From assembly GCA_000002435.2 (NCBI GenBank), contig CM018792.1: a DNA stretch of 64,000 bases, one strand, 5' to 3'. Positions 17,466 to 58,929 of the stretch are shown here, piece after piece (positions within the stretch are counted from its first letter, which is position 1; each line of letters begins with the position of its first letter). This DNA is from Giardia intestinalis. Its lineage: Eukaryota. Below the pieces are notes generated by a model that did not search any database, was not told the origin of the DNA, and saw only the letters and a list, made by a program, of their open reading frames with translations. The position numbers and the translations under genes are program-made.

Positions 17466-17499
17466 TTAATTCGGAACGAGTTAATTCGGAACGAGTTAA
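17466..17499. repeat. Direct tandem duplication of a 15-bp unit (TTAATTCGGAACGAG x2 plus partial)
   Basis: Seen directly. The sequence ttaattcggaacgag ttaattcggaacgag ttaa lies inside the 4.3-kb ORF-poor region. Confidence 0.9.
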
Positions 17500-20153: not shown

Positions 20154-21356
20154 ATGTTACTGAGTGAAGCACACAAGCAACACGTGAATCGAGCACCAAT
20201 GTTACTACCAGCTCTCTGCTTTTTGATGAGCGGCCTCGCCGCGCAACGCACTAAACAACCCGCGCCCAGCTGCCAGGTCGACAACTGCGAGCAGTGTAAC
20301 GCCGACAATGTCCACTGCGACCGGTGCGTCCCCAGCGACGACACAAAGTGCGAGCGGTGCAACGAGGGCTTCACGGTCAGCGACGACAAGACGGTGTGCA
20401 ACCAGAGCCCTGCGCAGTGCAATACTCCCAACTGTAAGACCTGTGACAACCCCAAAACAGACAACGAAATCTGCACTAAATGTAATGATGGCGACTACCT
20501 CACCCCTACAAACCAATGCGTACCTGACTGCACAGCCATCAGCGGATACTACGGAGATACTGACAAGAAGTGTAAGGCATGCAACCCTGAGTGCGCTGAG
20601 TGCGTTGGACCGGCCAACAATCAGTGCACGGCCTGTCCTGTTGGGAAAATGCTTCAGTATACAGATACTAATACTCCTGTCAATGGGGGCACGTGCATGG
20701 ACCAGTGCAGCGTGAGTTCTACAAACGATGGATGCGCAGAGTGTGGGGCTCAGATAGGAGGAACTGCATATTGCTCAAAGTGCAAGAACACTCAACAAGC
20801 CCCCTTGAACGGCAACTGTGCGGCCAGTTCACGAGTAGCCTTCTGTGCAACAATCACAAGTGGGGCCTGTACAAAATGCAATGAGGGTTACTTCCTCAAG
20901 GACGGCGGCTGCTATCAGACAGATAGACAGCCTGGTAAGCAGGTGTGTAGTAATGCACAGGGAGGCAATGGTAAGTGTCAGACATGTGCCAATGGCTTAG
21001 CAGCAAGTGATGGCAACTGTGCAGAATGTCATTCTACTTGTGCTACGTGCTCGACTGCAGATGCGGCTGACAAGTGCAAGACCTGTGCCACTGGGTATTA
21101 CAAGGAAAACGGTGACGATACCACTGCTGGGTTATGCAAGAAGTGCTCAGAGAAGATCTCTGGATGCAAGCAATGTGTGTCGTCATCTGGCAGTTCAGTC
21201 ATATGCTTAGAATCAGAAGTAGGCACTGGTGGAAGCGTCAACAAGAGCGGCCTCAGCACGGGGGCCATAGCCGGTATCTCTGTTGCTGTGATTGTTATTG
21301 TAGGTGGTCTTGTCGGATTCCTTTGCTGGTGGTTCCTCTGCCGCGGGAAGGCGTAG
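20154..21356 (+). CDS. Variant-specific surface protein (VSP), short variant
   Basis: 400 aa with signal peptide (MLLPALCFLMSGLAA) and dense CxxC motifs. It has a GGCY motif (LKDGGCYQTD), a C-terminal TM helix and the invariant tail FLCWWFLCRGKA. The stop is followed by ACTTAGGTAGTAAAC, matching the VSP extended poly(A) signal ACTYAGRTAGTRAAY. An alternative start lies at Met16 (20199). Confidence 0.85.
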   Translation: MLLSEAHKQHVNRAPMLLPALCFLMSGLAAQRTKQPAPSCQVDNCEQCNADNVHCDRCVPSDDTKCERCNEGFTVSDDKTVCNQSPAQCNTPNCKTCDNPKTDNEICTKCNDGDYLTPTNQCVPDCTAISGYYGDTDKKCKACNPECAECVGPANNQCTACPVGKMLQYTDTNTPVNGGTCMDQCSVSSTNDGCAECGAQIGGTAYCSKCKNTQQAPLNGNCAASSRVAFCATITSGACTKCNEGYFLKDGGCYQTDRQPGKQVCSNAQGGNGKCQTCANGLAASDGNCAECHSTCATCSTADAADKCKTCATGYYKENGDDTTAGLCKKCSEKISGCKQCVSSSGSSVICLESEVGTGGSVNKSGLSTGAIAGISVAVIVIVGGLVGFLCWWFLCRGKA

Positions 21357-21368
21357 ACTTAGCTGTGT

Positions 21369-21383
21369 ACTTAGGTAGTAAAC
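21369..21383 (+). terminator. VSP-type extended polyadenylation signal (ACTTAGGTAGTAAAC)
   Basis: Exact match to the conserved Giardia VSP 3' motif ACTYAGRTAGTRAAY, 13 nt after the stop codon. The mirror copy lies at 42553-42567 on the minus strand. Confidence 0.75.
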
Positions 21384-21399
21384 GCGTTACTTTATGTAG

Positions 21400-22150
21400 C
21401 TCGTGTAGATGTGCTGCTGGAGCTATCTGAGCGCGATCCAGAGATCATGCGGGTAATCCTCGCTCTTTCCTGGCCGTCCGGAAACGATGGCTGGTCGTGG
21501 ATAATGTAACGAGGAGCTCCTCTCCAGTGATGCATCCAGAGCCCTGCGCGGTCCCCGGTCGGCCTCCAGGATCCGGCCTGCTTAGGGCCATACGAGCCGC
21601 GAGTGTGCCTCTCCTTGGCCTGCCGCCAGGATGAATGAAACTCAGGTCGTCCCTGCACTTCTTGACCTCCTCGCTGTGGTATCCATGCAGTTGCTGGATG
21701 ACACCCACGCCCACCGCCTTGCGTTTGTGTCGGGCTCTGCTCTGCTCTGGCCGCCGGGCTGGCCTGATCTCCAGCTTGCGTTGCACTCCCCGAGACACGG
21801 AGGCACAGGTACCGACGATTGCACTGGGCCCCTGGTCGTCCCTCTGCACCGGTGGAGAGGAGCCCCTGCTTGCTGTCTACAACCGCCCTCGGACTGGCCA
21901 AGAGTCGAACACGAGCTTATCCCGAGGCCTCCGAATGCACCGGAGACGGGCTCCGATGGCACAGCACTCGATGCGATTCTTCCTGCTTGCACCCTAACTG
22001 AGGCCTGTGCACTGAGAGGCCGGTGGCACCCACCCGCTGGGGGCAGGCCACGATCTGGTGGTCCGGAAGGCGCTTGCAAGGGGCTGGGCGTCAGTCCAGG
22101 GGATGATCCGGGCCCTAAGCATTCACTCTCTATGAGCTGCGGCCCGCCAG
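21400..22150 (-). mobile_element. Degenerate non-LTR (LINE-like) retrotransposon 3' fragment, arm copy
   Basis: GC-rich segment. Its minus-strand translation (ORF 21445-21849) aligns with the endonuclease region of the spacer LINE fragment. CASVSRGVQRKLEIR...VGVGVIQQLHGYHSEEVKKCRDD matches CLCLRVSGKFNAELEVK...VDVRVIQPRQMDAYYNEKVKKYRDG. Nucleotide similarity is also visible, e.g. cctgtgcctccgtgtctcggggagtgcaacgcaagctggagatcag versus cctgtgcctccgcgtctcggggaagttcaacgcagagctggaagtcaag. Confidence 0.5.
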
Positions 22151-22158
22151 CCGCAGAG

Positions 22159-35300: not shown

Positions 35301-36435
35301 GATCGAGAAGGGGCAATGACCGGACACACAACCGAGTTGAATCCCAACCAGGAGAGAACGCCCCGCTAGCTGCTGCTGATATACATGGACAGTATTGAGA
35401 ATGACAACAAAGACCAGAGCTTCACTCACCGTGAAGGGAGAGCAAGGAGAGGCACCCTAGTAGACCAGCGAGCCTGCAGGACGGCCTGATCTCCAAAAGG
35501 ACCTATGTGCACACCTAGATCGAGCACACACCCGCAGAACAGTCGAGGAACGCAGATAGCTCCTCCCGTCCACTACTGTGGTCATTATCATATTCCATAG
35601 CCAACCCTCGTCTCTGGACTAGTCAGGGACTGAGCAAGAGCTTACCCGTGAGATCTCTGGACCATACCTGCAGGCGAGGGCCCCAGCAGCACACCACTGG
35701 AAGCAACCGGTGGGTGGAGTAAATCATCATCACCGTGGTTAAGTTGCATGCCAGCCAGCCGCTCATGGTGCCAGCCACTCCCGGTACTGGGCCCTTCGCC
35801 ACAGAGTTCACCGGCTTCACTTCTGAGTCGGAAGGCCCGCTGAACGTACAGGTACATGATGAACCGCGGACGGGGACGGGAAGGATAATCTTTACTAGCC
35901 CGAGTCCTTGCTGTCGATCCTTCGAGGAAGCCGGCATGTCTCTCCGTGCCACAAGCCCGAGGGTCTCGTCCCGGGGCTCGTTGATCTGGGCAAGGGCCTG
36001 GACGTCCTTGAAGACCTCCGACCCACGAAACTCGGCGAGGTAGCACAGAACCACCGCCAACGCTATACCTGGAGGTGCTGCGAGTGGTTATGCAATGGAC
36101 AGGGCCCTGTTTTGTCTATAACTTGTCAGAACCAGCCAATCCCACAGCTGCAGAGGGGCGATGTTTAGCACACGGGGTCCGCAGTTCTGGCCTCTGCACA
36201 GCACTGTCGGTCACTCGCGGAGCCGCGGACACGCAGGGTGCGTTGCTGAGGACCGGGCATCCACCTGCGTATCGGCAGCCATGAGAGCCGGTGCTCGCCC
36301 AGACCGGAGGCTCCAGTAGCAGAGTCCGCTGACCAATACGCATCAACACGCTTGGTGCACTGGCCGAGACCTGCCGTGCCGTGCCTGGCAGACGCAGAGC
36401 GCAGGATGGCACTGGGACGCGTTTACTACTTAAGT

Positions 36436-38547
36436 CTACGCCTTGCTTCGACAGAGGAACCACCGGCAGAGGAACCCGACGAGCCCCTCGACGATGACAA
36501 CAGCAACGACGATGCCTGCGATAGCCCCCGTGGAGAGGCCGCTCTTGTTTGTGTTCCTGCTATCCTTCATGAGATAGCAGAGGACAGGGCCAGTGTTGCC
36601 AGACGGGGGAGCGCAGCTCACGCAGCCATTGATACCAGTGACCCCATTGCTATTACCTTCGCAGAATGTGCACGCGCCTTCTCCCAATACAGTCTTGTAG
36701 TATCCTGTCGCACATACCTTACACGTTGTAGCTGCCCGTTGCATGTTTCACAGCTAGAATCACACTTTGTACATGTTTGGCTGCTTCCGATTTTTGCATA
36801 CCCATCTTTGCATGTCGTGCAAGTGCTTGAAGTAGTGCACTTTGCACAGCCATCAGAGCAAACCACAAGGTTAATACTACCGTCAATATAATAACCTGAA
36901 GCCATCAAAGTGCAAGTATCAGCGCCTGGTGCTGTTGTGCAGACACTCTTCCCAGGGAACTTGGTCGTTTCATAACAGTCCCCGTTTATACGAAGAAACC
37001 CATTGGTGCATGAGCTGCATGCGCCCTTGACAACATTTCCGGTCTTACAAGTGGCTGCGGCACGAGCAGTTGCTGAGGTACAGACCCCATTCTGAGGATA
37101 TTCTGTCCCCGCGGCGCACTCTGAACAATAGCTAGCTCCATCAATGGTTAGCCCACATGTTTTACGGGCACCACTACTTTGGCCTGTTGTGCATCCAGTT
37201 CCACAGGTGCCTTTGACTCCATCACTTTCGTACTTAAGTGCTCTTCCAGTGGGACATTCAGTGCAGTCATTAGCAGTACCTGCACTGCATGTCTTGCAGC
37301 TTTCGTGACACGGAGAGCAGGCATCACCATTTTTGTAAAATCCGTCTTTGCATATTTGACATTGCCCCTGATTATCACAGGCCTTACAGTTGGACACAGC
37401 ACACTTCTTGCAAGTTTGCTTTGCTCCTTCCGTTGCTCCGTAGTAATTCCCAACCTTGTTGCAGCTGTCTATGCACTGGCTCGCCGGGTGAGATAGTTTC
37501 CACTAGCATACTCTGTGCAGACCTCGTTCTCTTTGCCCTCGTTATTGCATGTCTTGCATCCAGGCGTCTTGCAATTACTTGCTGCTTCACACTTAGTTTC
37601 ATCAGCACTAAGTTTGTATCCTACTACATAAGTGGTGCATGTAATGAGGGCAGCCCCTGATTGACTAGTAACTAAGGCACACATGGCGCAATTGGCAATT
37701 CCGTCGGTGCTGTCATCCTTGGGGAAGAAGCCGTCTTTGCATTGGTCTTTTTGTACACATGATGTGTCTTCGCCTGTGGTTTTCAGATAGTTGTTACCAG
37801 TACACTTGATACATTTGATCTTCTTAGATTGCTAGTGATAGGTGCAGGTGTCACATTAGCAACGCCGCCATTAGGGCTATCACTGCAAGAAGCACACTTG
37901 TTGCCATTCTCAGAATCATCAACTGCAACGAACTTATTAGTGCTACCAGAATTACATTGGGCTTTATCTACGCACACGTTATCCTTGAGATACTTACTGA
38001 CTCCACACTTGGTACACGTTGCAACCTTGCCGGCCTCAGCGCCGGCTGTTGCGTCAGGGGCGCCGCACTCTGCGCAGTCAGCAATGCCCTTGTATGTGTT
38101 TCCGCCAGCTGTTATTGCTACTCCGGTCGTATAACTACATGCAACCACGGATTGCTCAGTATTTACCACTTCCGTGGGGATAAAGTATCCAGGAGCAGCC
38201 TCGGTGCATACTCAGCCACTAGCCACAAGGCAAAAGCTCTGCCCCGGCTTTCCGTCGTTGGGTTGGTAGCAGCCGTCCTTGTATTTAAAGGAGGTGCTTC
38301 CACATTGTGTGCATTTTCCGGCGCTATGTTACGGACAAAGCGTACTAGCTGGCGTTTGCCCAGCATTCGCACAGATCCCATCTACGGGAGCATAGTTGGC
38401 CCCATCATTGCATTCACTGCAATATTCACTGCCACCAATGGTGGCTCCGCACGTCTTGCAGCTCCCAGCACCACCTAATCCATTTGCTTCACATGCAGCC
38501 CATGTTAGCTGCAAGACAGCGCTAGCAAGTAAAAGTCTACCGAACAT
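36436..38547 (-). pseudogene. VSP pseudogene, inverted copy of 25381-27492 with identical lesions
   Basis: Identical fragment translations on the minus strand (ORFs 36436-36744, 36618-37397, 37783-38169, 38329-38547). Confidence 0.7.
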
Positions 38548-39698
38548 TGAGGTTGCTGATCAATGGCGGTCTGTAGGACGCAGCAACACGCACTTGAGGG
38601 GCACCCTTTCGCGGGGTCGACCCATTAAGTAATGCTCTCAATGTAAAGCCCGAGGCTCAGACGTACTACATGACGCCCTGCATGCCCACAAGAAAGTCCG
38701 ACGGCCTCGCGATACCGCCCGGCGTGCCTCACTCCCGTGAGAATGCCCACCCACACCCCTTCCTCACGCTATCCCTACACCACCATACATTCCTTCCTCC
38801 CTTCCTCCCTTCCTGCCTGGCTGTCCGGGTGTCCCTACCGTCCAACGCCTGACGGGAGACGATTCAAAAAATAGAAAAGGACCCCACGATTCCGGCTCCG
38901 TACTTTTCGCAAAAAATGGCAGATTAGCGCCTTGCATGGGCACGGAGGCCAATTTACGTTTTTTGCAAAAAATGGAAACTGAGCACCACGACAATAATAT
39001 ACTACTTACGTGACCAGAGCTGATTGCTTCCGAGGCCAGATTGCCGTCGCGATTGACGCAAGGCCCTAAGATAGTGAGTGCCCACTAGGTGCCAGGCAGC
39101 AGCCGGCCTCCAAGAGCTGGCTAGAAAAGAGAGAAATCCTAGAAGGCCCTGGGAAGAACCACATCGATGTCCGAAGGAAGTGAGGCATGAGGCCCTCTTC
39201 TCCCACCAGGATCCGAGGATATCCGAATTCCAGATTCTGGATTTGGATCTCAGATTCTGGGTCTTGCCAGAAGCAAGCGGGAGGTCCACCTGTCTAAAGC
39301 GGCAGCGGCTCGTACGGAAGATCTGTTCAGATAGCAGCTGGCAAGCTAACCTCGGAAATAATTTTGCGAATTAAAATGCCCCGCCCCTCCCTTCCTCTTC
39401 TGCCTCCAGGTCTGCCTGTGTGGCACATCACCCGTCCAGCACCAGGCTGGAGAGCAGGGGCGCGCTGATCAGCACAGGTCCGTGACGCAGGAGGCTCCCA
39501 TGGAGTGGTTCCATTTACAAGCTGAGCCCAGTGCGACTCCGGCTCAACGAGTCATCTCATCGTACCGCTAGTTGCCCTTCACGTTGTGCTTCAGACACGG
39601 GAATCTCAGTATGCGCACACGGATTCGCTAGCAGTTAATGTACTCGGTTGCAAGAAACCTTTTCGTTCTGTTGCAAAGGTGCGCCGGAAAATTCAGTG

Positions 39699-41777
39699 AT
39701 GTCGGTATTGTTTCTCTTCGGTCTAGCGGTTATCGGCTTAGCGGCCCAGCCGGGCGATGGCTCTACTCCGTACAAGAATGACTACTACGTTGCCTGTACA
39801 GGCTATAAGCCTAACTGCGTGCAAGACAAGTGCGTCATGTTCGGGCCAAGGACAACGTTGTGCACCGAATGCTTATCTGGAAAAGTGCCTATCAATGGTG
39901 CATGTGTAGGAAAAGACGATTCCCCTGCTGATCCCTCTATTGATCCAACTGTTTGTGTTACGGAATCAATTACAGGTAGTGACGCGTCACAACGGTGCAC
40001 ATCGTGTACTGGTGGCACCAAAGCTAGTGAAGCAGGAGGCTCGACCTATTTCTTATTCTACGGAGGTTGTTACAATAAAAATGAGTGGCCAGGTACGCAC
40101 ATCTGTGAGACTGTTTCAGATGGTGTTTGCAATACTTGTGCGGTTGCGCACGGTTTTGTTTTTGCAAACGACAGGAATTCTCAGGAGAAATGTATTCTGT
40201 GCGGGGACACTGCTGGTTTCAATGATAAAGTAGGCATAGCAGGATGTTCGTCTTGCATTTCCCTAGAATCTCCTTCCACCACAAGTGATAATACTAAACA
40301 GACTGCTGTCCGGTGTACATCGTGTGTGGATCCAACCAAAGCACCAATCGATGATGCATGCGCAGATACCACCTCCCATGTTTGCCAGAACGGATACTGC
40401 ACTCACTGTGCATCCACTCACGTTTGCTATAAGGGTGGGTGCTATAGCAAAGAGGGAAGTGGCGCATCTATATGTGCGTCAGACAACCTAATGGATATCA
40501 GTGGTTACTCTGCTTGCAAACAGTGTGTCAATCCCAACGAAGTTCCCCACAATGGCAACTGCAGACTGTCAAGCGAGTTTGGGGCCTGCAATAAGGACAG
40601 TACTGCTGGGAAGTGTACAGCATGTAATAGATCGTCCCCCGATCGTAGAGTCTTTTTCTATGAGGGCGGATGCTATACCACGAACGACCTCCTCGGGAGA
40701 ACTATCTGCACAGAGGCCTCTGGCGGAACATGCACCACTTGCAATGAAGCACAAGGATTCTTTGCGAAGGACTCGACGTGCAGCTGGTGTGATAGTACTA
40801 CAGCTGGTGCTATTGAAGATTGCGCTAGCTGTAGTATCAAGTCTGATGGGTCCAATAAGCTTGTGTGCACTAGCTGCAAGAATGATAAGTATGTCTCTGT
40901 AAGTGGCACTTCTTGTGTCACTTCTTGTTCTGCATCAGAATCTGGTAGCTGTGAAACTGGTACGTGTGTATGCAAATGTAACGTAGGTACCTATTTTGAT
41001 AACAATAGCAATAGCTGTATCCAGTGCGACTCAGCATGTCTGGAGTGTGACGGTTCAGGTCCTGACCACTGCACAAAGTGTTCTTCGGGAAAGTACACCA
41101 AGGTGGACGACTCTGGAACGGTTACATGTGTCGACGCATCTGAATGTGGCGATGGATACTATGCGGATCCAGAAGAGCTCCAGTGTGCCACATGTGGAAT
41201 TGAAAGCTGTCAAGCATGCACCCCTAAGGATAACAACCTCGTGTGCACACGGTGCTCCCCCGGACTTGTCTCCGTCGATGGTTTCTCGTGCCCACTCACA
41301 TGCACGGAGCTGAATCAGAGAGAGGAGGATGGAAAGTGCGTCTGTGCAGAGGGCTTCGAGCCCAGTAGTGATGGCGCATGCATAGCTAAGAACACCTGTC
41401 CATCAGACGCCACAGGGTGCTCGAGCTGCAGCGCAAGTGGCGAGTGCCTCTCATGTGCGGACAGCAATCACAACGTCCAGCCGAGCAAGAGATCCTGCGC
41501 CTCAGGCTGTCCAAGCGGATCAGAATCAGTCGGCTCTCTCTGCATATGCATGGAGGGGTACACCCTCAGGGGTGACACATGCGTCTCTCAGACCAGGAAG
41601 GCCAGCTCCGGCTCCACGACGGTCACCGTGGCAGTCGTTGTCTCCCTTCTCATTATAGCGGCCGTCGCCCTCACATGCTGGCTCGTCCTGCGGAGGCGGC
41701 GGGGATCGAAGCCGATCTCGAAGAAGAGGGCAGCGGCCGAGAACGTGGAGCTCATGGGGACGGTGGACGAGTTCTAG
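39699..41777 (+). CDS. High-cysteine membrane protein (HCMP), inverted copy of 22159-24237
   Basis: Translation is identical to the left-arm HCMP. The longer track ORF starts at 39648. Confidence 0.8.
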   Translation: MSVLFLFGLAVIGLAAQPGDGSTPYKNDYYVACTGYKPNCVQDKCVMFGPRTTLCTECLSGKVPINGACVGKDDSPADPSIDPTVCVTESITGSDASQRCTSCTGGTKASEAGGSTYFLFYGGCYNKNEWPGTHICETVSDGVCNTCAVAHGFVFANDRNSQEKCILCGDTAGFNDKVGIAGCSSCISLESPSTTSDNTKQTAVRCTSCVDPTKAPIDDACADTTSHVCQNGYCTHCASTHVCYKGGCYSKEGSGASICASDNLMDISGYSACKQCVNPNEVPHNGNCRLSSEFGACNKDSTAGKCTACNRSSPDRRVFFYEGGCYTTNDLLGRTICTEASGGTCTTCNEAQGFFAKDSTCSWCDSTTAGAIEDCASCSIKSDGSNKLVCTSCKNDKYVSVSGTSCVTSCSASESGSCETGTCVCKCNVGTYFDNNSNSCIQCDSACLECDGSGPDHCTKCSSGKYTKVDDSGTVTCVDASECGDGYYADPEELQCATCGIESCQACTPKDNNLVCTRCSPGLVSVDGFSCPLTCTELNQREEDGKCVCAEGFEPSSDGACIAKNTCPSDATGCSSCSASGECLSCADSNHNVQPSKRSCASGCPSGSESVGSLCICMEGYTLRGDTCVSQTRKASSGSTTVTVAVVVSLLIIAAVALTCWLVLRRRRGSKPISKKRAAAENVELMGTVDEF

Positions 41778-41785
41778 CTCTGCGG

Positions 41786-42536
41786 CTGGCGGGCCGCAGC
41801 TCATAGAGAGTGAATGCTTAGGGCCCGGATCATCCCCTGGACTGACGCCCAGCCCCTTGCAAGCGCCTTCCGGACCACCAGATCGTGGCCTGCCCCCAGC
41901 GGGTGGGTGCCACCGGCCTCTCAGTGCACAGGCCTCAGTTAGGGTGCAAGCAGGAAGAATCGCATCGAGTGCTGTGCCATCGGAGCCCGTCTCCGGTGCA
42001 TTCGGAGGCCTCGGGATAAGCTCGTGTTCGACTCTTGGCCAGTCCGAGGGCGGTTGTAGACAGCAAGCAGGGGCTCCTCTCCACCGGTGCAGAGGGACGA
42101 CCAGGGGCCCAGTGCAATCGTCGGTACCTGTGCCTCCGTGTCTCGGGGAGTGCAACGCAAGCTGGAGATCAGGCCAGCCCGGCGGCCAGAGCAGAGCAGA
42201 GCCCGACACAAACGCAAGGCGGTGGGCGTGGGTGTCATCCAGCAACTGCATGGATACCACAGCGAGGAGGTCAAGAAGTGCAGGGACGACCTGAGTTTCA
42301 TTCATCCTGGCGGCAGGCCAAGGAGAGGCACACTCGCGGCTCGTATGGCCCTAAGCAGGCCGGATCCTGGAGGCCGACCGGGGACCGCGCAGGGCTCTGG
42401 ATGCATCACTGGAGAGGAGCTCCTCGTTACATTATCCACGACCAGCCATCGTTTCCGGACGGCCAGGAAAGAGCGAGGATTACCCGCATGATCTCTGGAT
42501 CGCGCTCAGATAGCTCCAGCAGCACATCTACACGAG
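41786..42536 (+). mobile_element. Degenerate non-LTR retrotransposon 3' fragment, inverted copy of 21400-22150
   Basis: Mirror image of the left-arm fragment. The same REL-endo-like translation is found in ORF 42087-42491 (+). Confidence 0.5.
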
Positions 42537-42579
42537 CTACATAAAGTAACGCGTTTACTACCTAAGTACACAGCTAAGT

Positions 42580-49948: not shown

Positions 49949-52417
49949 CTATGAATACCATGAAGGCGGCAGAGTAAAGAGCATGCACTCTGTGGTACCT
50001 ATTCTAGTACGGTAGAAGTTTAGGGCTCGTTCGGCAGCAGCACTGTCGCCATAGAAAAGAGCGATTCCCTTCGGAGATTCCTGATACGTATCTGGTTGTG
50101 CAATGCTTCTCGATTCAACACTACGCTTGAGCTCTTGTATTCGAAGCTTTTTGAGGGAAACCACCGTACACGGATTTGGAAGGTTGTCTGGTATAAAGCA
50201 AGCTATACTCCTCTGCGCATCTGAAATATCAACAGATTCTGTACTAATCTCGCACTTTAGTGTGTAATTCATAAATTTGGTATCATTCACCGTGCTAGCA
50301 ACACGCGTTGCGTCTTCGTGGTTCGCACAGACTAGAAGCCAAAAGTTGTCATTTCCAAATCCCTTTGCACTAGAGCGAATAATGGGCCCCTTGCTGCGAG
50401 ACAGAACACAGTATTTATTCCATGCTAAAAGATCTAGAAGCTTAAGAGACGCGAGAAACGAGTTCAGATCTTTTGCCTGGGCTGTATTAGCACCTTTTAG
50501 TCGGATACATACGACCTCATTAGAGTGAGGCATAATGTATTCTCTCGAGGGTTGTCCATAGGTGTATCGAGACGGTCTACTCGTCGCAGATCCCTCTCCA
50601 GATGTATATGTTACAGTGCTTGGAGAGGTATTCCATGCTTGATGAGGCCTGTGCTTCCGATAAGCAGAGTTAGTGTTATAATAATGTGCGTCACCTTCTG
50701 GTCGCCCAGGGCCGCTGGCCGTTGTGCTGAGGTGATTACTATAGTTAGCGTAAGTGTTATGACTATGCCCGCCATAGCTGCCATATGATGGTCCATGCGC
50801 ATGGGGCTGATGAGATCCATGAGATAAGTATGGACTGTGCATGGAGTGGTCTATATCCTTGGGCACATGGATCACTCCATACCTTAGAAGTGCCAAAGCT
50901 TGGCTTTCTGTGAAGTGTACGCAATTGGAGAGATGCTTCGATTTGATAAGAAACTGATAGACGGCATCGTTTGGCTGTGTTGACGAATTGATGCTAATGT
51001 GGAATGGGTACATTATATTAACCGATGTCTGCAGAGACACGCGGTATGTGTCCTCCTTTTTTTCTTGTGCTGGCATATTGCTCACAAGATTGGTGACACT
51101 GCAGGGTATTGTTTCTATGGAAAATTTATTTAGAACTAATGGGAAAGCATTTGATTGACCTTCTTTATTGGCACGCTTTTGTTGAAATATATTGTGCAAG
51201 CTTTGAGTAAGATCGGGAGCCATTATATTCAGGAATACAGTGGCTCTCGGTGTCATCGGCCACATGGATACTTGCATGGGTGGGACATACTGGGTAAAGC
51301 CTTTAGTAAGAGATGGATTGTCAAAGAAGTTAATCAAGTAACTAGGAGACTGGGACACGACAGGCGCCTGAGTAGCAAGCTGGGTTTTGGGAGGATGCGC
51401 CACAGCAAACTGGTCGGAAAAGTAGGCTAGCCCCCGATCTAGTTCGCTAATTGATTCAAATAGCAAAAACGATAAGCCATGCAAGGAGTGCCTTATCCGC
51501 TGTACCTTCAAGTCAGGGCAGTGTTGAGACAAATATTCTTGAGTTACATATCTGTCTGCTTCCACTCTAAGAATTAGAGGGCTGTCCATTGTCTCAAAGT
51601 TGGGTATAGTTAGAGTATGGGACATATAAAAGTACAGATACCTCTCGAATGAATCCCTGTACTTGGACAAAAGAATTTTGAGGAGCTCTATGGTTCCGTC
51701 GACTGTTTTTAGCGTTATTCCTGTTTGTGATCGTGTCATGCTACTAGATGACTGGACCAGGGAGCTCTGGTGACTAAGTAGTGGGCTCTGCTTGAGCGTA
51801 GGCTCAATTCCAACGTCTCCAGACACGCTGCTGTGGTCCTTCTTCACACGCTTTTCATGTTGCTTCGCTGTCATGACTGAAAAATTAATGGTCGTCTCAA
51901 TTGCGCTCACAGTGTGCAAAGTTGGAGACGTGGTAAGTGCAGTGAGCTGAGTATTTAGGGGATGCGAAAAGCTACTTAGAAGAGCAGACTTTGCTATATT
52001 CATTACGACAGCTGTTGAAAGAAAAAGAACAGGAAACTTGTAGAGTGGCGACTTGGACAGGGAGACCTCGGTGATAAGGGCGTGATAGGTATCGATATTG
52101 GAGGCGAGCAACAAGGGCTTTTGGCGAAGTATCCGCATACTGGCATCTGCATTGGTGTAGGCGTTGGGGATAGCCGTGTAGATAAAGTCTGCATAATCAA
52201 TATACTTAGAAATGAGCTCGTTTGTCAGCGAGAGAGAGCGAAGCTCTTCGTCTGTAATTCTACAGCGAGGGCGCGTCCGCTGGTGTTCTTGGACCGACTG
52301 CTCCGATGAGCCTTCACTATACGTTACCCGGCACACTCTAAGGACTCTATTATTAAGATCCACTGATGATAATCGATCCATGTTCAAAAAGGAAAGCTCT
52401 AGAACAATGAAGCTCAT
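49949..52417 (-). CDS. hypothetical protein (822 aa), His/Tyr/Ser-rich low-complexity middle
   Basis: Long ORF in an AT-rich coding context. The low-complexity segment reads HSPYLSHGSHQPHAHGPSYGSYGGHSHNTYANYSNH. No confident domain. Confidence 0.5.
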   Translation of the reverse strand: MSFIVLELSFLNMDRLSSVDLNNRVLRVCRVTYSEGSSEQSVQEHQRTRPRCRITDEELRSLSLTNELISKYIDYADFIYTAIPNAYTNADASMRILRQKPLLLASNIDTYHALITEVSLSKSPLYKFPVLFLSTAVVMNIAKSALLSSFSHPLNTQLTALTTSPTLHTVSAIETTINFSVMTAKQHEKRVKKDHSSVSGDVGIEPTLKQSPLLSHQSSLVQSSSSMTRSQTGITLKTVDGTIELLKILLSKYRDSFERYLYFYMSHTLTIPNFETMDSPLILRVEADRYVTQEYLSQHCPDLKVQRIRHSLHGLSFLLFESISELDRGLAYFSDQFAVAHPPKTQLATQAPVVSQSPSYLINFFDNPSLTKGFTQYVPPMQVSMWPMTPRATVFLNIMAPDLTQSLHNIFQQKRANKEGQSNAFPLVLNKFSIETIPCSVTNLVSNMPAQEKKEDTYRVSLQTSVNIMYPFHISINSSTQPNDAVYQFLIKSKHLSNCVHFTESQALALLRYGVIHVPKDIDHSMHSPYLSHGSHQPHAHGPSYGSYGGHSHNTYANYSNHLSTTASGPGRPEGDAHYYNTNSAYRKHRPHQAWNTSPSTVTYTSGEGSATSRPSRYTYGQPSREYIMPHSNEVVCIRLKGANTAQAKDLNSFLASLKLLDLLAWNKYCVLSRSKGPIIRSSAKGFGNDNFWLLVCANHEDATRVASTVNDTKFMNYTLKCEISTESVDISDAQRSIACFIPDNLPNPCTVVSLKKLRIQELKRSVESRSIAQPDTYQESPKGIALFYGDSAAAERALNFYRTRIGTTECMLFTLPPSWYS

Positions 52418-52590: not shown

Positions 52591-54006
52591 TTGTTGGCCG
52601 CCATGAACGCTCACACCGATTTCAAGCCTCCAATTTTGGACGGATCCGGAGTAAGTAATCCCTTTACATGTATCATATGTAGACTCAAATTCAATACTTT
52701 TGAAGATCAGCGGCTGCACTTCAAAACACGATTCCATGCAGAGAATTCCCACCGCAAAGCCAAGGGCCTCCCCCCGCTGACAAACGAAGAGTATATGGAG
52801 CTATTAGAACAGCGGAGTGCAGCTACGCCGCAGCCAGTCAAGAAGGTCAAATATATCTGCGAGCCCTGCGGAAAGTTGTTTTCATCGCAAAATGCCTACA
52901 AGCAGCATGAGCAGTCCACAAAGCACCGAGAAATGGTTATGAAGTTGTGTAGAGAAGGACCTCTACGGAAACCTGTCCTAGGAACTGATGCACAGCTTGG
53001 CGACGCAGTTGATGATGGAAACGTGCGAATAAATTTAGAGATGGCCATACAAGAAATCGTCGATTCCATTCCAACGCTTCCAGCCTTTATCGGAGATGAC
53101 GAGGCCGATAAGTGGGAAAAAATTCAGAAGGCACTTCTCGCTGCTAAATCGGAGGATCAACGCGACGACATCATCTGGGAGAGCATTATTTCCAAACGCC
53201 CCGTTCGACCCGACAATGAATGTTTGTTCTGTGACCATACAGTGGACCAAGCTAAAGATGACTGGTTTACGGAGTTACTGAAGCACATGGAAATACACGG
53301 ATTTATCATCCTGCGAGCCAATTATTGTACAGATCCACAAGGCCTGGTCAACTATATGAGAAAGGAAATATCCCTTACTTGGAGCTGCCTGTTATGCGAG
53401 AGGGGATTCAGATCTGTCGACGCTGTTAAGGGGCACATGCGTGCTGCAGACCATTGTATGTATGAACTTAATGATCAAGCATACGAGTTCTTAGGCTATT
53501 ATGATCATTCTCCAAGCTATCCGGATGGATTCATAGAAGAGGTTCATACTATTGCAGAGACGCCAGAGGAGCTAGAAAGCATGCTGTCTGAGATACGGAG
53601 GACTATGTGGTCTTCATCGCTACCCATTATTGGTCGCACGACTGCTGCTGGGCGCGTTGTATCAGTCAAAGACTACGAGAAAAACTATGCGCCCCAAGTT
53701 CCTGACTGGGCGGTGGAGAAGTATCAGCGTGCACAGATGCTCAAGACCCTACCCTACTATGAACGCGAGATACTAATGCGCAATTTAACAGAGGCACAGA
53801 GGGAAACTGCGTTAGAAAAGGCTCGTGCAGAGGCTGGCCAGCGCATCCAGTCCTGGCTCAAGTCTAAATGGATGGTCGTTAAGGGGCAAATCCTAGGTCC
53901 CTTAGCACGCTATGACCCGCGTGTGCAGGCTCGAGATGCAATGAGTGCAGGTATCAACCATTATAAGAAGTTCTTCAAACGTTCAACCTTGCATATATAC
54001 AACTAG
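52591..54006 (+). CDS. C2H2 zinc-finger protein, REI1/ZNF622-like (pre-60S cytoplasmic maturation factor candidate)
   Basis: The N-terminal FTCIICRLKFNTFEDQRLHFKTRFHAENSHRKAKGLPPLTNEEY resembles the REI1/ZNF622 first finger (C-x2-C...H-x3-H followed by ...LPP..). Three further U1-like C2H2 fingers follow (YICEPCGKLF...HEQSTKH, CLFCDHTV...LLKHMEIH, WSCLLCERGF...HMRAADH). Confidence 0.55.
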   Translation: MLAAMNAHTDFKPPILDGSGVSNPFTCIICRLKFNTFEDQRLHFKTRFHAENSHRKAKGLPPLTNEEYMELLEQRSAATPQPVKKVKYICEPCGKLFSSQNAYKQHEQSTKHREMVMKLCREGPLRKPVLGTDAQLGDAVDDGNVRINLEMAIQEIVDSIPTLPAFIGDDEADKWEKIQKALLAAKSEDQRDDIIWESIISKRPVRPDNECLFCDHTVDQAKDDWFTELLKHMEIHGFIILRANYCTDPQGLVNYMRKEISLTWSCLLCERGFRSVDAVKGHMRAADHCMYELNDQAYEFLGYYDHSPSYPDGFIEEVHTIAETPEELESMLSEIRRTMWSSSLPIIGRTTAAGRVVSVKDYEKNYAPQVPDWAVEKYQRAQMLKTLPYYEREILMRNLTEAQRETALEKARAEAGQRIQSWLKSKWMVVKGQILGPLARYDPRVQARDAMSAGINHYKKFFKRSTLHIYN

Positions 54007-54012
54007 CTAGCG

Positions 54013-55062
54013 TTACTCCGCTTGTTTCCTATCTCTAAAATAGAAGTAAATGGTCTCTTCTGTCAGAAATACGAGGAAGGTGGCCGTTTCTGCCATGCCT
54101 ATGATCATCCCGTCAGTTCGAAACTCACTGACACGCTCCTTACTACCTTGCTGCTGTGTGGTTACCTCGTTAGAGACTGCCGCGATGGTAATTCGTTCAG
54201 TGCCTGTCGTCCCTCTGGAGTCCAATACATAGAGCGGTTCGTATTTGCTCACCTTACACCATGTGGAAACAGACGCTCCTGTCTTATCTACTGCGCAAAC
54301 TTGGCGCGTATTCAGACCTAAAAGGAATATTCCCGAGTGAGAAAATCGCGAGCAAAGGACCCGCGCGCCGTTCAACGGCAGCCGTGCGAAGGACTTAAAC
54401 ATCACGCTAACAGAGGTATCCTGTTGATAGACGACATCATAAGCAATGAGAGACTGCCTACAAACTAGGTATAGATTGCTACCAGAAAATACACCTGAAA
54501 CAGGAACATCGACATCAATACAGGTCTCAAATAGCAGCGTGGCCTTTTCTACGTCAAAGATAAATAGGTGCGATGCACTCGTGCATAGAACGCCAAGGAG
54601 TTTTCGACCCTTGACAATCCCCGACAGAAAGGCTTTTGCCCCATAACATTCTGTTTGATGGAGCATCGCCAAATAAAGCATTGAGTCTGCCAGTTCTGCA
54701 AGATACACAGCTCCACCAAGCGTGGCTAAGGCAACGTGCTTCTTTGGTGCGTCTGGAAGAGCATGTAGGACGATGATGAGGTCGGAATCTGTAATGGCTT
54801 CCCTTTGGTCTAGAAAAATGAGTTGGAGAGGTTCTATGGCGGTACCAGGGGTTTCTTCCTGCTTTTGAGAGTCTAACTCCTTAATCATGTACACGCTGCA
54901 GCCGTCTGAATACAAAAGAGTGTCCTGGAGGGCAGTACAAAGAGTACATCCACGAATGAAAGTGATGGGCCGAGAAAACCCAGTAGGGCATACAACACCA
55001 TTAAAGTCCATGACTAATTTACCCAAAATTTTAAAGGCTAAAAGCCTTGACATGGGACGCAC
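54013..55062 (-). CDS. hypothetical protein (349 aa)
   Basis: ORF only. Start is uncertain (MRPMSRL / MSRLLAF / MDFNGVV). Confidence 0.4.
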   Translation of the reverse strand: MRPMSRLLAFKILGKLVMDFNGVVCPTGFSRPITFIRGCTLCTALQDTLLYSDGCSVYMIKELDSQKQEETPGTAIEPLQLIFLDQREAITDSDLIIVLHALPDAPKKHVALATLGGAVYLAELADSMLYLAMLHQTECYGAKAFLSGIVKGRKLLGVLCTSASHLFIFDVEKATLLFETCIDVDVPVSGVFSGSNLYLVCRQSLIAYDVVYQQDTSVSVMFKSFARLPLNGARVLCSRFSHSGIFLLGLNTRQVCAVDKTGASVSTWCKVSKYEPLYVLDSRGTTGTERITIAAVSNEVTTQQQGSKERVSEFRTDGMIIGMAETATFLVFLTEETIYFYFRDRKQAE

Positions 55063-56126
55063 TCCCTTCCGGTGACACAGTTGAGGGGTGCAGTGCCGGC
55101 TGGCGTTGCGCCGAGATTAATGTGTGTGAATGTTCCGATAGTGACACTCTTATTTAAAAGATCTGCCTCCCTTTCAATCAAATTAGGCTTGGTTGCAGTG
55201 ATAGGCGCAGTTTTATCATGAGGCCGTAGATTTGATTTATAATCCGAGTATGCAGTGGGATGGTTACTGGGATGTTGAGGATATACTGTCCTAGATTTAA
55301 TTTGGGTCGAGGTAGGATTGAGGTAGTCTATCTGATCTGCAGTTGCAGCCCGTGTGCGAGCAAGGTTGCTATGTGGGCGAGCATAATAGTCACTATACAT
55401 ATGGTTAATGTTGCGGGAAACAGGGCGCCGCTCATTGTTCATCGGTACGTCCTCCTTCATCCTGGGTCGGTGGTCAGAGTAAGCCAGAGATGGCCTCCAA
55501 CGACAGTTGGACTCTGGCAGGTGCTCCAGTCTTGTCTGCTCGCGGCGCATCTCACATAGCTCTTGCTTGTTCGGAACATACCTAACGTGTGTTGTGGCCC
55601 CCCACCCGGTCATGTCTGGGTGACACATGCGATAGTTAGAAGCACGGAACCTTTGCCCGGCCTGCGACGTTCGAGGAAACGTTGCTGTGAGATCTGGATA
55701 TGGATTCGGCCGAGAAGTCACAGTTTGTGCCCGCTCTATAGCACGCTGACTCCCAATAACCGTCGGCACCGGGTCTCCTCTCTCTGCTGCATCTAAAAGA
55801 GGGTTAATATGGGTGTAAGAATTCGACATGGGAAGCTGCTCTGGTGGCGGATGAAATGATGTAGGTCGGATCATGTAGGAGCGGGGAATAGTCCTTCTGC
55901 TAACATCTTCCATGCTTATGCCCACATTATCAGTTACCGGCTCACACTGCAGTGGCGGGCACGGACTCATTGTCTGTTGATTCCACTGCGGCACATTATC
56001 CGCTGCGTCAAACGAGCCGCATCCACACACCCCGTGAAAGGGATATGGGCACCCGGGTGCATGCCTAGGCTCAACACAATCCATACAGCCACGCGCATTA
56101 GCACAGCACAAAGACCCCGCTTGCAT
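55038..56126 (-). CDS. H-x3-C-x7-C-x-C family protein A (362 aa), tandem paralog cluster
   Basis: N-terminal ...RHAPGCPYPFHGVCGCGSFDAADNVP shares the motif found in the neighbouring ORFs. Pro/His/Tyr-rich. Confidence 0.5.
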   Translation of the reverse strand: MQAGSLCCANARGCMDCVEPRHAPGCPYPFHGVCGCGSFDAADNVPQWNQQTMSPCPPLQCEPVTDNVGISMEDVSRRTIPRSYMIRPTSFHPPPEQLPMSNSYTHINPLLDAAERGDPVPTVIGSQRAIERAQTVTSRPNPYPDLTATFPRTSQAGQRFRASNYRMCHPDMTGWGATTHVRYVPNKQELCEMRREQTRLEHLPESNCRWRPSLAYSDHRPRMKEDVPMNNERRPVSRNINHMYSDYYARPHSNLARTRAATADQIDYLNPTSTQIKSRTVYPQHPSNHPTAYSDYKSNLRPHDKTAPITATKPNLIEREADLLNKSVTIGTFTHINLGATPAGTAPLNCVTGRECVPCQGF

Positions 56127-56239
56127 TTTTTTCTACAGCATTCCGCGCATGCACTCCCAAGAAAGGTTATAAGCGCACACATAGACAGCCCCAGTTTACA
56201 GTCAAGTGGCAATGCCTCCACAATCGATACCCGAAGAGC

Positions 56240-56959
56240 TTATTCTTTTGCAATACGCTTTATCAACTCTTCCTTTAGATATCGAGCATCTGCGGGATCA
56301 CCGCACTCATAACAAGTAACACCATCTTCCCACTTTGTCGATACAGCGTACTTCTGGATGACGGGTTGAGGCTTGTTGTATGGGCAAAGAGAGAACCCGT
56401 CATCGAATGGCTCAAAGAGCTGATCCTTCTTAGGGGTCACGTCCAGAGTTGTTCGGCCACGTGTCCCAGGAACTTCCTCATTCAGTCTGAAGTTTGATAT
56501 TCGTCCAGGCCAGTGACAAAGGCGAGCTGCTGGAGCAACCGTGGTATGGAGATCCTCGCGTCTATACACGGTTGAGGCAGGTCTTTGATACGCTTCGTGG
56601 CTCTGAATACAACAGATCTTTGTTGGGATAGTGTAGGGGTCTCCACGCAACAACCCCACGCACCCCATGGAGTCTGGTCCAAACGCATGTGTCTCGCAGT
56701 TCTCGCCAGGAATGGGATATTTAAAGTACCTATCTGGACCGATACTATCGCAATGTGGAGGTACTGATGTATGTGCTAGCAGGGGCCTGACCGGTCTGGA
56801 GAAGCTCTTGCAGTCGACAGGTCCAGGCTTCCTCCACCCAGGTGGGCACTCAACATCAGCAGCGCATGTACATACACCTGCGGTATATACTGGGCAGTCT
56901 GATGCATGCTGTGGTCGTTCAGAATAGGTGCTTCTGATGTATTCTGTCGCTTGTCTCAT
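56240..56959 (-). CDS. H-x3-C-x7-C-x-C family protein B (239 aa)
   Basis: N-terminal QHASDCPVYTAGVCTCAADVECPPGW, and a middle block LLRGDPYTIPTKICCIQSHEAYQRP. The latter is paralogous to C (LYGRDPYADLPCVMRTYQGERV). The C-terminal SLCPYNKPQPVIQKY is paralogous to D (VMCPYLYETYKYAL). Confidence 0.55.
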   Translation of the reverse strand: MRQATEYIRSTYSERPQHASDCPVYTAGVCTCAADVECPPGWRKPGPVDCKSFSRPVRPLLAHTSVPPHCDSIGPDRYFKYPIPGENCETHAFGPDSMGCVGLLRGDPYTIPTKICCIQSHEAYQRPASTVYRREDLHTTVAPAARLCHWPGRISNFRLNEEVPGTRGRTTLDVTPKKDQLFEPFDDGFSLCPYNKPQPVIQKYAVSTKWEDGVTCYECGDPADARYLKEELIKRIAKE

Positions 56960-57004
56960 TTTTAATTGGCGCGCTTACAGACTCAACAACGTTTACTGAC
57001 TCAC

Positions 57005-57580
57005 TCACAAATGATAGCGAACGCGAACTGGCGCATAACTGCTTGTAGGACGCAGCTTGTCAGATAGGATCGCTGCCGGAACTAATCCTCTGGTTAATGT
57101 TGCAATCTTTCTATTAGCCATATCGTTTAAGGCGTACTTATACGTTTCATACAAATAAGGGCACATAACATTATCTCTATCAAGCGCAAGCTTAAACACC
57201 TGAGTGGGGACCCTGCTGCGTGAAGACGAAGAATGCAACACACGGGTGTAGCCAGCCTGGTAAGAGGGATCAGACTCAGTCAGCAAAGATTCCGGGAGAT
57301 ACTGGTTGTAGTTGTCAATACAAGAATTGCTCCCTTCTTGTAGGTCAATGCCATGTCTGTGCGATGCAAGGTTGGGTTTGCCTGTAATAGGCCCTGTCCA
57401 GTCGACACCAATCACATTAGAAGGTCGCTGAGTTCCATATGCTGTCAATTCTTGAGTGCTTGAAGTACGCACAGGGTCGTTAGTGCCAAGCGGATGAACA
57501 CACGAACAACTTTTCATTTTACTCCTATCACTCACCCCTGTTTCAAGCTTCCTTTGGGCCTCCAAATGGCCAAAACCCAT
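57005..57580 (-). CDS. H-x3-C-x7-C-x-C family protein D (191 aa); possibly the 3' half of C after a frameshift
   Basis: Contains KMKSCSCVHPLG and a MCPYLYETYKYAL block matching the C-terminal part of B. It overlaps the 3' end of C by 38 nt in another frame. Confidence 0.4.
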   Translation of the reverse strand: MGFGHLEAQRKLETGVSDRSKMKSCSCVHPLGTNDPVRTSSTQELTAYGTQRPSNVIGVDWTGPITGKPNLASHRHGIDLQEGSNSCIDNYNQYLPESLLTESDPSYQAGYTRVLHSSSSRSRVPTQVFKLALDRDNVMCPYLYETYKYALNDMANRKIATLTRGLVPAAILSDKLRPTSSYAPVRVRYHL

Positions 57581-58196
57581 TTTGGACTCCGTTGCGGCCG
57601 CTAACTCCTGCTGGCTTAAAGAATGTGCCGCAGAAGGAGTTCTCCTTTTGCAAAATCTCGAGGTATTCCTTTGTATAATCTCTTGGCTCCCTCAGCTCGA
57701 AGGAATTTCGAAAGCCCCAGCCATATGGCGGTTCCCTCTGCGGGATCTTGTGTGGGACGATTACCCTTTCTCCTTGATAGGTCCTCATAACGCAAGGTAG
57801 GTCAGCATATGGATCTCTTCCGTAGAGCTCTTTTGGGCGATGACGAGTCATCCGAGCTTTGCATTGAGCTCTCTCTTGCTCTGATATGCGGAGCATGTTA
57901 CACCAACATTGCGGATCATCAGTCCACGCTCGATCACACAAGTGAGGGGAATGGCCCGTATCTCTTTGATGTGTAGATAAGCTAGAAGAGTAACGAGGCT
58001 CTAATCCCATGGGATCACGCCACATCTGCTCTCTGTCGAACATGTATGCCAAGTTCCGCGTCTGTGGAGGCAGATTGGTAGTAGGCATCTTATTTCCAAT
58101 ACCACAGGTGCAATCTTCGTTTTTATAGTACAGGCAGTCCCGTGCGTGCATAGATAGGTGACGGATCTTCGATCTGTTATACGCGGCAGTGCTCAT
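57543..58196 (-). CDS. H-x3-C-x7-C-x-C family protein C (217 aa)
   Basis: N-terminal HLSMHARDCLYYKNEDCTCGIGNKMP. An AT-rich promoter (taatttatatagaagcctaattttattagtaaatgcagcaaaaag) lies directly upstream. Confidence 0.5.
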   Translation of the reverse strand: MSTAAYNRSKIRHLSMHARDCLYYKNEDCTCGIGNKMPTTNLPPQTRNLAYMFDREQMWRDPMGLEPRYSSSLSTHQRDTGHSPHLCDRAWTDDPQCWCNMLRISEQERAQCKARMTRHRPKELYGRDPYADLPCVMRTYQGERVIVPHKIPQREPPYGWGFRNSFELREPRDYTKEYLEILQKENSFCGTFFKPAGVSGRNGVQNGFWPFGGPKEA

Positions 58197-58260
58197 TCAG
58201 GTCTCCGGTAATCTGTATCTTTTTGCTGCATTTACTAATAAAATTAGGCTTCTATATAAA
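58197..58260 (-). promoter_or_regulatory. AT-rich Giardia-type core promoter/initiator region for family gene C
   Basis: A 64-bp intergenic stretch of >75% AT between the stop of E and the ATG of C. It is typical of Giardia short AT-rich promoters. Confidence 0.4.
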
Positions 58261-58929
58261 TTACATCTCACGGACTACATCCCCAATGGGGCAATGTGCC
58301 CTACGGAATCCGCCATCACGCTCTGGATGCGGCGACATGCTATATCCATAGACTATCTGATTTTTAGTATCAGCATAGAATGCCTGATAGCCTTTTCGCT
58401 CAACACTTGATGGAGTCTGACTTACTGGTGAAGAGCTCAAGCCCACTGTGGCCCTACTAGGCTCTGGGTTAGATTGAGATCTCCTTGCCACCAGCGCTCG
58501 TATGGGCGGCAATTGAACATCAGGTTTGACTCTAGAGTAGCCCGCATCCAACTGTTCAAAGATGCTATGTTTCTGCAACGACCTTACTGGTTTTCCAGGA
58601 TTGGTGCATACGTTGATTAGCTTGGCGTTGGGAGTTTTATTATGTTCTAGGGATTTTAAGGACATTGAGGCAGAGTTAGAACGACATAGTCGTGGAAGCT
58701 CAAAAGTGTCGTTGAGGGGCGAGCAACTTGGCGCATTTCGCTGATTGGAATAACTTCGAGATGGGATTGTTGTGGTATCTTGACCGGCGCTGTTCTTGAC
58801 AGGCTGTGGAGCAATCTTAGCTTGTACACTCTGGTTTGTAGTATGGCGCAGAGCCCGAAGAACAGGATCAGCTGGCGTCTGTGTGATAAGCTTCATAGCA
58901 CCATTATTGCACCCGCTTACAACACGCAT
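58261..58929 (-). CDS. hypothetical Ser/Pro-rich protein E (222 aa), last member of the tandem cluster
   Basis: Ends ...YGYSMSPHPERDGGFRRAHCPIGDVVREM. The C-terminal RAHCP echoes the HxxxC start of the family motif. Confidence 0.4.
   Translation of the reverse strand: MRVVSGCNNGAMKLITQTPADPVLRALRHTTNQSVQAKIAPQPVKNSAGQDTTTIPSRSYSNQRNAPSCSPLNDTFELPRLCRSNSASMSLKSLEHNKTPNAKLINVCTNPGKPVRSLQKHSIFEQLDAGYSRVKPDVQLPPIRALVARRSQSNPEPSRATVGLSSSPVSQTPSSVERKGYQAFYADTKNQIVYGYSMSPHPERDGGFRRAHCPIGDVVREM

Follow-up and report, generated by a model that had tools for sequence, protein, structure and literature searches.

What do the five genes packed on the minus strand between positions 55038 and 58929 of a 64,000-nucleotide (nt) stretch of Giardia DNA have in common? 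This stretch, referred to below as the window, belongs to contig CM018792.1. The original prediction, made from its sequence alone, described five open reading frames (ORFs A, B, D, C and E) as a tandem cluster of paralogs with a common N-terminal H-x3-C-x7-C-x-C motif. Exact-sequence look-up of the ORFs, from which the gene identities used here were taken, placed the source region in Giardia intestinalis WB (assemblage A), in agreement with the organism assumed there. All five ORFs were recovered with the same coordinates and lengths when the sequence was re-read, and all are annotated as 'hypothetical protein'. The comparisons showed that A to E are five independent protein-coding genes, packed closely together and all read from the minus strand in the order E-C-D-B-A, and that this array is specific to Giardia. 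The predicted family with the N-terminal motif was upheld for A, B and C but not for D and E, giving three members in this window instead of five. The genes, and the motif cores located by pattern match, are as follows.

55038..56126, minus strand: gene A, GL50803_17375, 362 amino acids (aa), exact match to XP_001705372.1; carries the module and a well-conserved central domain
56019..56063, minus strand: module core in A, HAPGCPYPFHGVCGC, residues 22-36
56240..56959, minus strand: gene B, GL50803_4692, 239 aa; module carrier, listed as a basal-body protein
56864..56908, minus strand: module core in B, HASDCPVYTAGVCTC, residues 18-32
57005..57517, minus strand: gene D, GL50803_4690, 170 aa; fast-evolving, with no detectable paralogy
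57518..57542, minus strand: spacer between C and D, 25 nt, the final AGTAAA of which abuts the ATG of D
57543..58196, minus strand: gene C, GL50803_4689, 217 aa; module carrier, listed as a basal-body protein
58104..58148, minus strand: module core in C, HARDCLYYKNEDCTC, residues 17-31
58261..58929, minus strand: gene E, GL50803_4687, 222 aa; no detectable paralogy, conserved C-terminal block

The N-terminal strings on which the family had been based were present in A (RHAPGCPYPFHGVCGCG), B (QHASDCPVYTAGVCTC) and C (MHARDCLYYKNEDCTC), and belong to a module of about 30 residues with the core H-A-x2-C-x7-C-x-C. In a six-frame translation of the whole 64 kb, the strict pattern HA..C.{7}C.C matched exactly three times, once each in A, B and C, compared with 0.03 matches expected from composition shuffles. 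Full-length Smith-Waterman alignment against 500 shuffles gave z=8.3 for A-B and z=3.5 for B-C, and when only the first 40 residues were aligned the values were 7.6 (A-B), 7.6 (B-C) and 3.2 (A-C). Removal of these 40 residues abolished the signal for B-C (z=-1.3) and A-C, and left a weak one for A-B (z=3.5). Profile-profile comparison with hhalign, using alignments of the G. intestinalis orthologs, connected the three pairs at E values of 1.8e-3, 1.5e-3 and 2.1e-2 and aligned the same 18-35 columns; addition of the Giardia muris sequences gave E=6e-4 for A-B, 9e-5 for B-C and 8e-3 for A-C. With the module cut off, all three pairs fell to E≈0.2 (0.18 for B-C). The similarity of A and B past the module, seen with single sequences but not with profiles (E=0.2), was therefore treated as unproven, and the internal 'GDPY...C' block thought to be common to B and C was not borne out by either method once the module was removed. 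Since nothing is detectably shared outside the module, A, B and C are best described as module-sharing paralogs, the remainder of which has either diverged beyond recognition or is unrelated.

The relationship was also recovered by leaving out one paralog at a time. Hidden Markov models (HMMs) built from two paralog groups were run against 1068 stop-to-stop segments from the window and the G. muris locus, and in each case the left-out paralog ranked first among the non-training segments, the best background segment reaching E values of 0.1-0.4. The G. intestinalis proteins were found at E=7e-5 (A), 1e-7 (B) and 9e-4 (C), and the G. muris orthologs of B and C at 5e-6 and 3e-5, while the G. muris ortholog of A was not recovered. 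The combination of H-[AT]-x2-C-x7-C-x-C within the first 40 residues and a match to the profile of the other paralogs was found in A, B, C and the G. muris orthologs of B and C. The module HMM gave no score for D, E, the G. muris A ortholog or the G. muris genes m267, m379 and m294.

All five genes of the array are real. Syntenic loci were compared from assemblage B (L002, and a second B-type contig, L001/L003), assemblage E strain P15 (L007) and G. muris (L009), together with a fourth G. intestinalis lineage represented by read-archive assemblies only (L004-L006). In the four G. intestinalis lineages (assemblages A, B, E and the fourth), the five genes were present in identical order and orientation without internal stops. 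The ratio of nonsynonymous to synonymous substitution (dN/dS), computed against P15, for which synonymous sites are unsaturated (dS 0.43-0.78), was 0.08 for A, 0.12 for B, 0.10 for C, 0.22 for D and 0.145 for E, and out-of-frame reading of the same alignments gave 0.8-1.9 (D 0.8, E 1.3). Substitutions between the WB and P15 genes were in excess at the third codon position. In-frame ratios far below the out-of-frame ones, together with this excess, indicate that all five genes are protein-coding and under purifying selection.

The degree of conservation differed within the array. Between assemblages, A, B and C are 75-85% identical (A reaches 79-89% across the G. intestinalis lineages), compared with 45-59% for D and E, so that the description of the family as rapidly diverging applies to D and E only. 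Transcript or protein support, which had been proposed as a check on the ORFs, exists for A, B, C and D in the form of RNA-seq, proteomics and basal-body listing. An RNA-seq table of genes whose expression falls with culture time includes A, B and D; normalised RNA-seq values at 48/60/96 h are 222/222/100 for B and 118/124/67 for C, the two profiles running in parallel; and the B protein was detected in the trophozoite proteome (PMC5070761). Each ORF had been credited with its own short AT-rich promoter, and such tracts immediately precede the ATG in E, D, B and A, C being less clear. In one 1265-nt read-archive contig, a B variant of 158 aa (P0049) agrees exactly with B for about 108 residues, after which the reading frame changes; its tail matches a 68-aa alternative-frame ORF at 56482-56688, and the probable cause is an indel introduced by sequencing or assembly of that sample.

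The inclusion of D and E as paralogs of A to C found no support from Smith-Waterman alignment, profile-profile comparison or the module HMM. Every pair with D or E was at chance in the Smith-Waterman shuffles (z between -1.2 and 1.4), and hhalign gave E values of 0.12-0.9 for such pairs (at least 0.12 for D against A, B and C, and at least 0.14 for the pairs of gene E). Alignment scores no better than those of shuffled sequences, which the original prediction had itself named as evidence against a family, were thus obtained for D and E, but not among A to C. As no test links D or E to the rest of the array, the family is defined by one short module and has three members, not five. At the sequence level D and E appear to be unrelated neighbours, with a composition similar to that of the others (basic, Pro-rich and poor in hydrophobic residues). 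E has a conserved C-terminal block of its own, which reads KNQIVYGYSMSPHPERxGGFRRAHCPIGD in the alignment.

The boundary of C and D showed no sign of a sequencing error. D is currently annotated in its 170-aa form, which starts with MKSCSC at 57517, 25 nt past the C stop, and D is 169-170 aa long in all other G. intestinalis lineages. An upstream in-frame ATG, giving an overlapping D of 191 aa, occurs in WB only, and the overlap of C and D that had been noted is an artefact of this ATG. The end of gene C (...GFWPFGGPKEA-stop) is identical in the four G. intestinalis lineages. The spacer, compared in WB, L001, L002, L004, L007 and L009, is 23-39 nt long in all lineages and always ends in AGTAAA directly before the D ATG; G. 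muris has GAGTAAAAAAG there. The C-to-D frame offset was 1, 0, 2, 2, 0 and 0 across six loci. A conserved stop and spacer, a varying frame offset and an ATG restricted to WB indicate that C and D are two genes. The Giardia polyadenylation signal is AGTRAAY, and because the AGTAAA of the spacer resembles it, the signal at the 3' end of C seems to serve at the same time as the AT-rich initiator of D.

Homologs were detected in G. intestinalis and G. muris only, as anticipated from the proposed lineage specificity. A search with the B ortholog profile (HMMER, 1.84 billion representative proteins) returned only G. intestinalis B and one protein of 39% identity in the GMRT_12258 cluster of G. muris, and a search of a 5.8-billion-protein collection with the A profile returned Giardia sequences only, GMRT_12257 among them. 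The corresponding G. muris locus (L009, CM016925.1) holds seven packed genes on one strand, none with a Pfam match. The last four of these are orthologous, in order, to C (m182, z=28), D (m108, z=12), B (GMRT_12258, z=57) and A (GMRT_12257, z=57, 41-49% identical over the central part), showing that the core order C-D-B-A is older than the split of G. intestinalis and G. muris. No counterpart of E was detected at the locus (z<=2.5 against the G. muris array genes). Two further genes, m267 and m379 (L009 7049-7852 and 7901-9040), lie on the same strand upstream of the C ortholog and have motif-like N-termini rich in Cys and His, MHSSLPPEYCYATHAGKCPRCAGGVYTGCRC and ...KAHGCGYQGGPCVCAQC, respectively. 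Apparent variants of the motif were seen by eye in m267 (HAGKCPRCAGGVYTGCRC) and m379 (AHGCGYQGGPCVCAQC), but gave no Smith-Waterman or HMM score; these genes were not counted as members, and may be degenerate ones.

The sharing of the module by A, B and C was weighed against other explanations. Chance or compositional coincidence among Cys-containing Giardia ORFs has to be considered since the pattern was defined after inspection of the sequences, and since the looser H-x3-C-x7-C-x-C has three additional matches in frames of the window that are not genes. Such a coincidence is very unlikely, as three HA-anchored matches were found for 0.03 expected, all of them at residues 17-36 of adjacent genes, a clear gap separates the leave-one-out HMM values (1e-7 to 9e-4) from the background, and in G. 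muris B and C the motif has outlasted the divergence of the sequence around it. The suggested frameshift or sequencing error near 57540-57585, which would make C and D parts of a single gene, had its origin in the 191-aa D ORF of WB, which overlaps the end of C in another frame. It can be practically dismissed in view of the fixed C stop, the conserved D ATG (MKxCxC) behind its spacer, the shifting offset and the WB-only upstream ATG; in addition, G. muris also has two separate genes, and the C-terminus is among the best-conserved parts of C.

A further possibility is that all five genes are paralogs from tandem duplication, of which D and E have diverged to traces: the N-terminal CxC and 'CPY' block of D, and the 'HCPIG' of E. 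The common strand, the packing and the unusual composition (basic, 7-11% Pro, hydropathy index GRAVY -0.5 to -1.0), which is unlike that of both flanking genes, would fit this, as would the M-K-x-C-x-C of D, invariant within G. intestinalis while the rest of the N-terminus varies, and the rate of evolution of D and E, which is high enough for similarity to be erased. hhalign pairs the N-terminal CxC of D with the CxC of A and C, but in the E range of 0.12-0.26 only. The match of D to the C-terminal third of B, pointed out originally, was likewise chosen by hhalign at the same stretch, but at E=0.12 (0.26 with G. muris), and its Cys is replaced in G. muris D. A five-member family nevertheless appears distinctly unlikely, as no pair with D or E rises above chance in the shuffles, the profile comparison or the module HMM, the G. 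muris D ortholog lacks any Cys at its N-terminus and has Arg in place of the CPY-block Cys of WB D, and E is without a G. muris counterpart at the locus.

The 11 module sequences, drawn from three paralog groups and two species, agree without exception in His and the three Cys, and almost always in the Ala that follows His; the core of A is invariant in the four G. intestinalis lineages. Between C and its G. muris ortholog, 5 of 16 Cys/His residues are kept (H13, H17, C21, C29 and C31), all within the module, and identity is 63% in the first 30 residues, compared with 0-23% in mid-protein. In B, conservation with respect to G. muris is highest over the first 90 residues (H18, C22, C30, C32, C38, C50, H63 and C70 are kept). 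These alignments show the module as the most constrained part of both B and C. The five proteins have isoelectric points (pI) of 7-10, 7-11% Pro, GRAVY of -0.5 to -1.0 and 18-22% aliphatic or aromatic hydrophobic residues, compared with pI 5.4-5.5, 3-6% Pro and 29-33% hydrophobic residues for the products of the two flanking genes. Structure prediction, which had been proposed as a check for a zinc-knuckle fold, yielded no confident fold: AlphaFold2 models of B (3-sequence alignment) and A (5 sequences, including G. muris) had mean confidence scores (pLDDT) of 30 and 32, with no confident segment. The basic, Pro-rich composition and low pLDDT are consistent with extended proteins that would have no autonomous fold and might fold on a partner.

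Both B and C are listed under 'all basal bodies', without a Pfam domain, on the basis of proteomics and epitope tagging, in a table of McInally and Dawson (2016; PMC4931700) that draws on Lauwaet et al. (2011). From this listing and the conservation of the module, the following mechanism is proposed. The invariant His and three Cys would bind one metal ion, most likely Zn2+, forming a small rigid knuckle at the N-terminus of extended or disordered basic, Pro-rich chains; the knuckle would dock the proteins onto a basal-body component; A would be a third basal-body protein; and the array would have arisen through tandem duplication. The descriptive part of this explanation is near certain, and the reading adopted is a genus-specific basal-body protein family with a probable metal-binding knuckle; metal binding and docking, taken on their own, are put forward tentatively. 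For the explanation as a whole, from the genus-specific array and its shared module to the knuckle, the docking and the role of A, the case is evenly balanced. It might be extended further, to a module that evolved within Giardia as an undescribed metal-binding knuckle and portable basal-body docking element, with E-C-D-B-A as a 'basal-body cassette' of co-regulated genes for extended proteins associated with microtubules, which might lie in the lumen of the unusually stable Giardia basal bodies or act there as linkers, and in which D and E would be functionally linked, non-homologous partners; this extension is speculative and rather unlikely to hold in full.

The main rival on chemistry is that the conserved Cys are not metal ligands but sites of S-palmitoylation or other lipidation, or redox or disulfide sites, by which the proteins would be tethered or regulated. 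Clusters of Cys occur at the extreme N-termini of A (SLCC..C..C), D (MKxCxC) and the G. muris A ortholog (MQCTNGMCACSC), the tail of A (C-Q-G-F) is CaaX-like and conserved in G. intestinalis, and CxC spacing is unusual for zinc sites. This alternative is considered unlikely, given that the listed location of B and C is the basal bodies and not membranes, and that an invariant His is separated from the first Cys by three residues, with fixed spacings of seven and one thereafter, in three paralogs and two species. The invariant His and the fixed spacings would point to coordination geometry more than to acylation sites. In A itself, the additional cysteines at the N-terminus (56070-56126) and the CaaX-like tail (55038-55049), which is preceded by ECVPC, are invariant in the G. 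intestinalis lineages, and the G. muris ortholog ends in CSCTVAGV instead of CQGF; these terminal cysteines hint at possible prenylation or acylation of A.

Several observations weigh against a metal-binding knuckle that docks at the basal body. The spacing H-x3-C-x7-C-x-C fits no known zinc-finger family in the Pfam search, no knuckle was confidently predicted by AlphaFold (pLDDT 22-40 over the module), although the low pLDDT may be just an effect of alignments of 3-5 sequences, and metal binding by the four residues is argued from their conservation only. The basal-body localisation of B and C comes from a review table (PMC4931700), and localisation data for A, D and E were not found in the searchable literature. 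In addition, the G. muris A ortholog is without the segment that holds the CxC half of the module, so that the module was either lost there, in which case at least one species would have an A that can do without it, or acquired in G. intestinalis A.

Giardia has eight basal bodies, which organise the flagella and the ventral disc and the positioning of the nuclei. Among their components are many 'hypothetical' proteins specific to the lineage, which offer no handle for study. The present results connect 4692 and 4689, two orphan proteins already known from basal bodies, with each other and with 17375 by way of a His/Cys motif of 15 residues that is strictly conserved. They provide a target for mutagenesis (H, C, C, C), a candidate for a third basal-body protein and, at the same site, two genes that evolve fast; they also correct the idea of a five-member family and remove a suspected frameshift. 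No description of the adjacency of B and C, their shared module, the third member A (17375) or the G. muris array was found in the searchable literature. The lineage-specific family is real but small, with three members in the window and a new putative metal-binding motif tied to basal bodies; the basal-body listing of B and C was known before. The finding is not a major surprise, since the genes had been annotated before and cytoskeletal families confined to the lineage are nothing unusual in Giardia, but it will be of use to specialists of the Giardia cytoskeleton.

On the downstream side, a mechanical ORF call (54013-55062, minus strand, 349 aa with a GTG start) overlaps the end of A and is an artefact. 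The orthologs of the true gene begin with MDF(N/D/G)G..., are about 331-339 aa long and start 17 to about 30 nt past the A stop; the protein has no Pfam domain, and its composition is unlike that of the array genes. Downstream of the array, 52591-54006 on the plus strand encodes a C2H2 zinc-finger protein (zf-C2H2_2, E=5e-26; zf-C2H2_jaz), which we take to resemble a ribosome-biogenesis factor of the REI1/ZNF622 type. This gene is syntenic in every G. intestinalis lineage and does not occur at the G. muris locus. Elsewhere, the window contains an inverted duplication at 100% identity, whose arms (20412-28195 and 35733-43524) each measure about 7.8 kb, lie about 7.5 kb apart and are symmetric about 31.97 kb; it was reported as two abutting pairs (20412-25136/38800-43524 and 25102-28195/35733-38826). 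GC content is 0.63-0.67 in the block 44000-50000, compared with 0.45-0.55 elsewhere, and falls sharply to 0.45 at about 50 kb; AT skew is strong (-0.41) at 44-46 kb, and no Rfam family was matched in this block. The only Rfam matches in the window were a 5S rRNA gene (17394-17528, minus strand, 76 bits) and a tRNA gene (40-112, minus strand, 69 bits).

The statement that no described family has this signature agrees with the Pfam and PDB searches. Pfam gave nothing at E<=1 for A and B, and only sub-threshold, unrelated matches for C, D and E. For the seven G. muris array proteins and the isolated modules nothing exceeded the cut-off, and no zinc-finger model matched the modules at E<=10. Sequence searches of the PDB with A, B, C, D, E and the module profile returned nothing or noise (E>=0.018). 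The I-TASSER labels 'oxidoreductase/hemocyanin' given to 4692, 17375 and 4690 (PMC4670223) were rejected as threading artefacts, because identity is 7-13% and several unrelated hypothetical proteins were assigned to the same very large hemocyanin entry.

The only Pfam match to the module region was 4HPAD_g_N (PF18671), to residues 17-33 of C, at E=0.05 and 13.8 bits, the gathering cut-off being 25. This is the N-terminal domain of the gamma subunit of 4-hydroxyphenylacetate decarboxylase, in which a [4Fe-4S] cluster is bound via one His and three Cys. The C module has the same set of ligands, but only one of five module sequences (that of WB C) matches, below the cut-off, and the biological context is unrelated, so that the match was set aside as noise or, at most, a lead. 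Among zinc sites, the CCHC knuckle is C-x2-C-x4-H-x4-C, and the HCCC site of the TAZ domain is H-x3-C-x12-C-x4-C, repeated three times in a helical domain. Like these, the module has one His and three Cys inside 15 residues; as in HCCC sites it opens with H-x3-C, and like small zinc knuckles it sits in a protein otherwise with little predicted structure. It differs from the CCHC knuckle (PF00098) by its spacings of three, seven and one and its terminal CxC, with no Pfam match, and from TAZ by being a single site in A, B and C, by its x7 and x1 spacings and by having no zf-TAZ match.

Variant-specific surface proteins (VSPs) and high-cysteine membrane proteins (HCMPs) are rich in CXXC repeats, possess a signal peptide and are anchored by a C-terminal transmembrane segment, and the VSP tail is CRGKA. 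Like them, A to E are Giardia-specific and Cys-containing, and they are clustered, as VSPs and HCMPs often are. Unlike them, they contain 2-6% Cys, at most two CXXC each and no hydrophobic segment (GRAVY -0.5 to -1.0), and the location listed for B and C is cytoskeletal in the table of PMC4931700. The closest known counterparts are the Giardia-specific hypothetical basal-body proteins of the same table, which include B and C themselves, entered there as two separate hypotheticals with no relation to each other.

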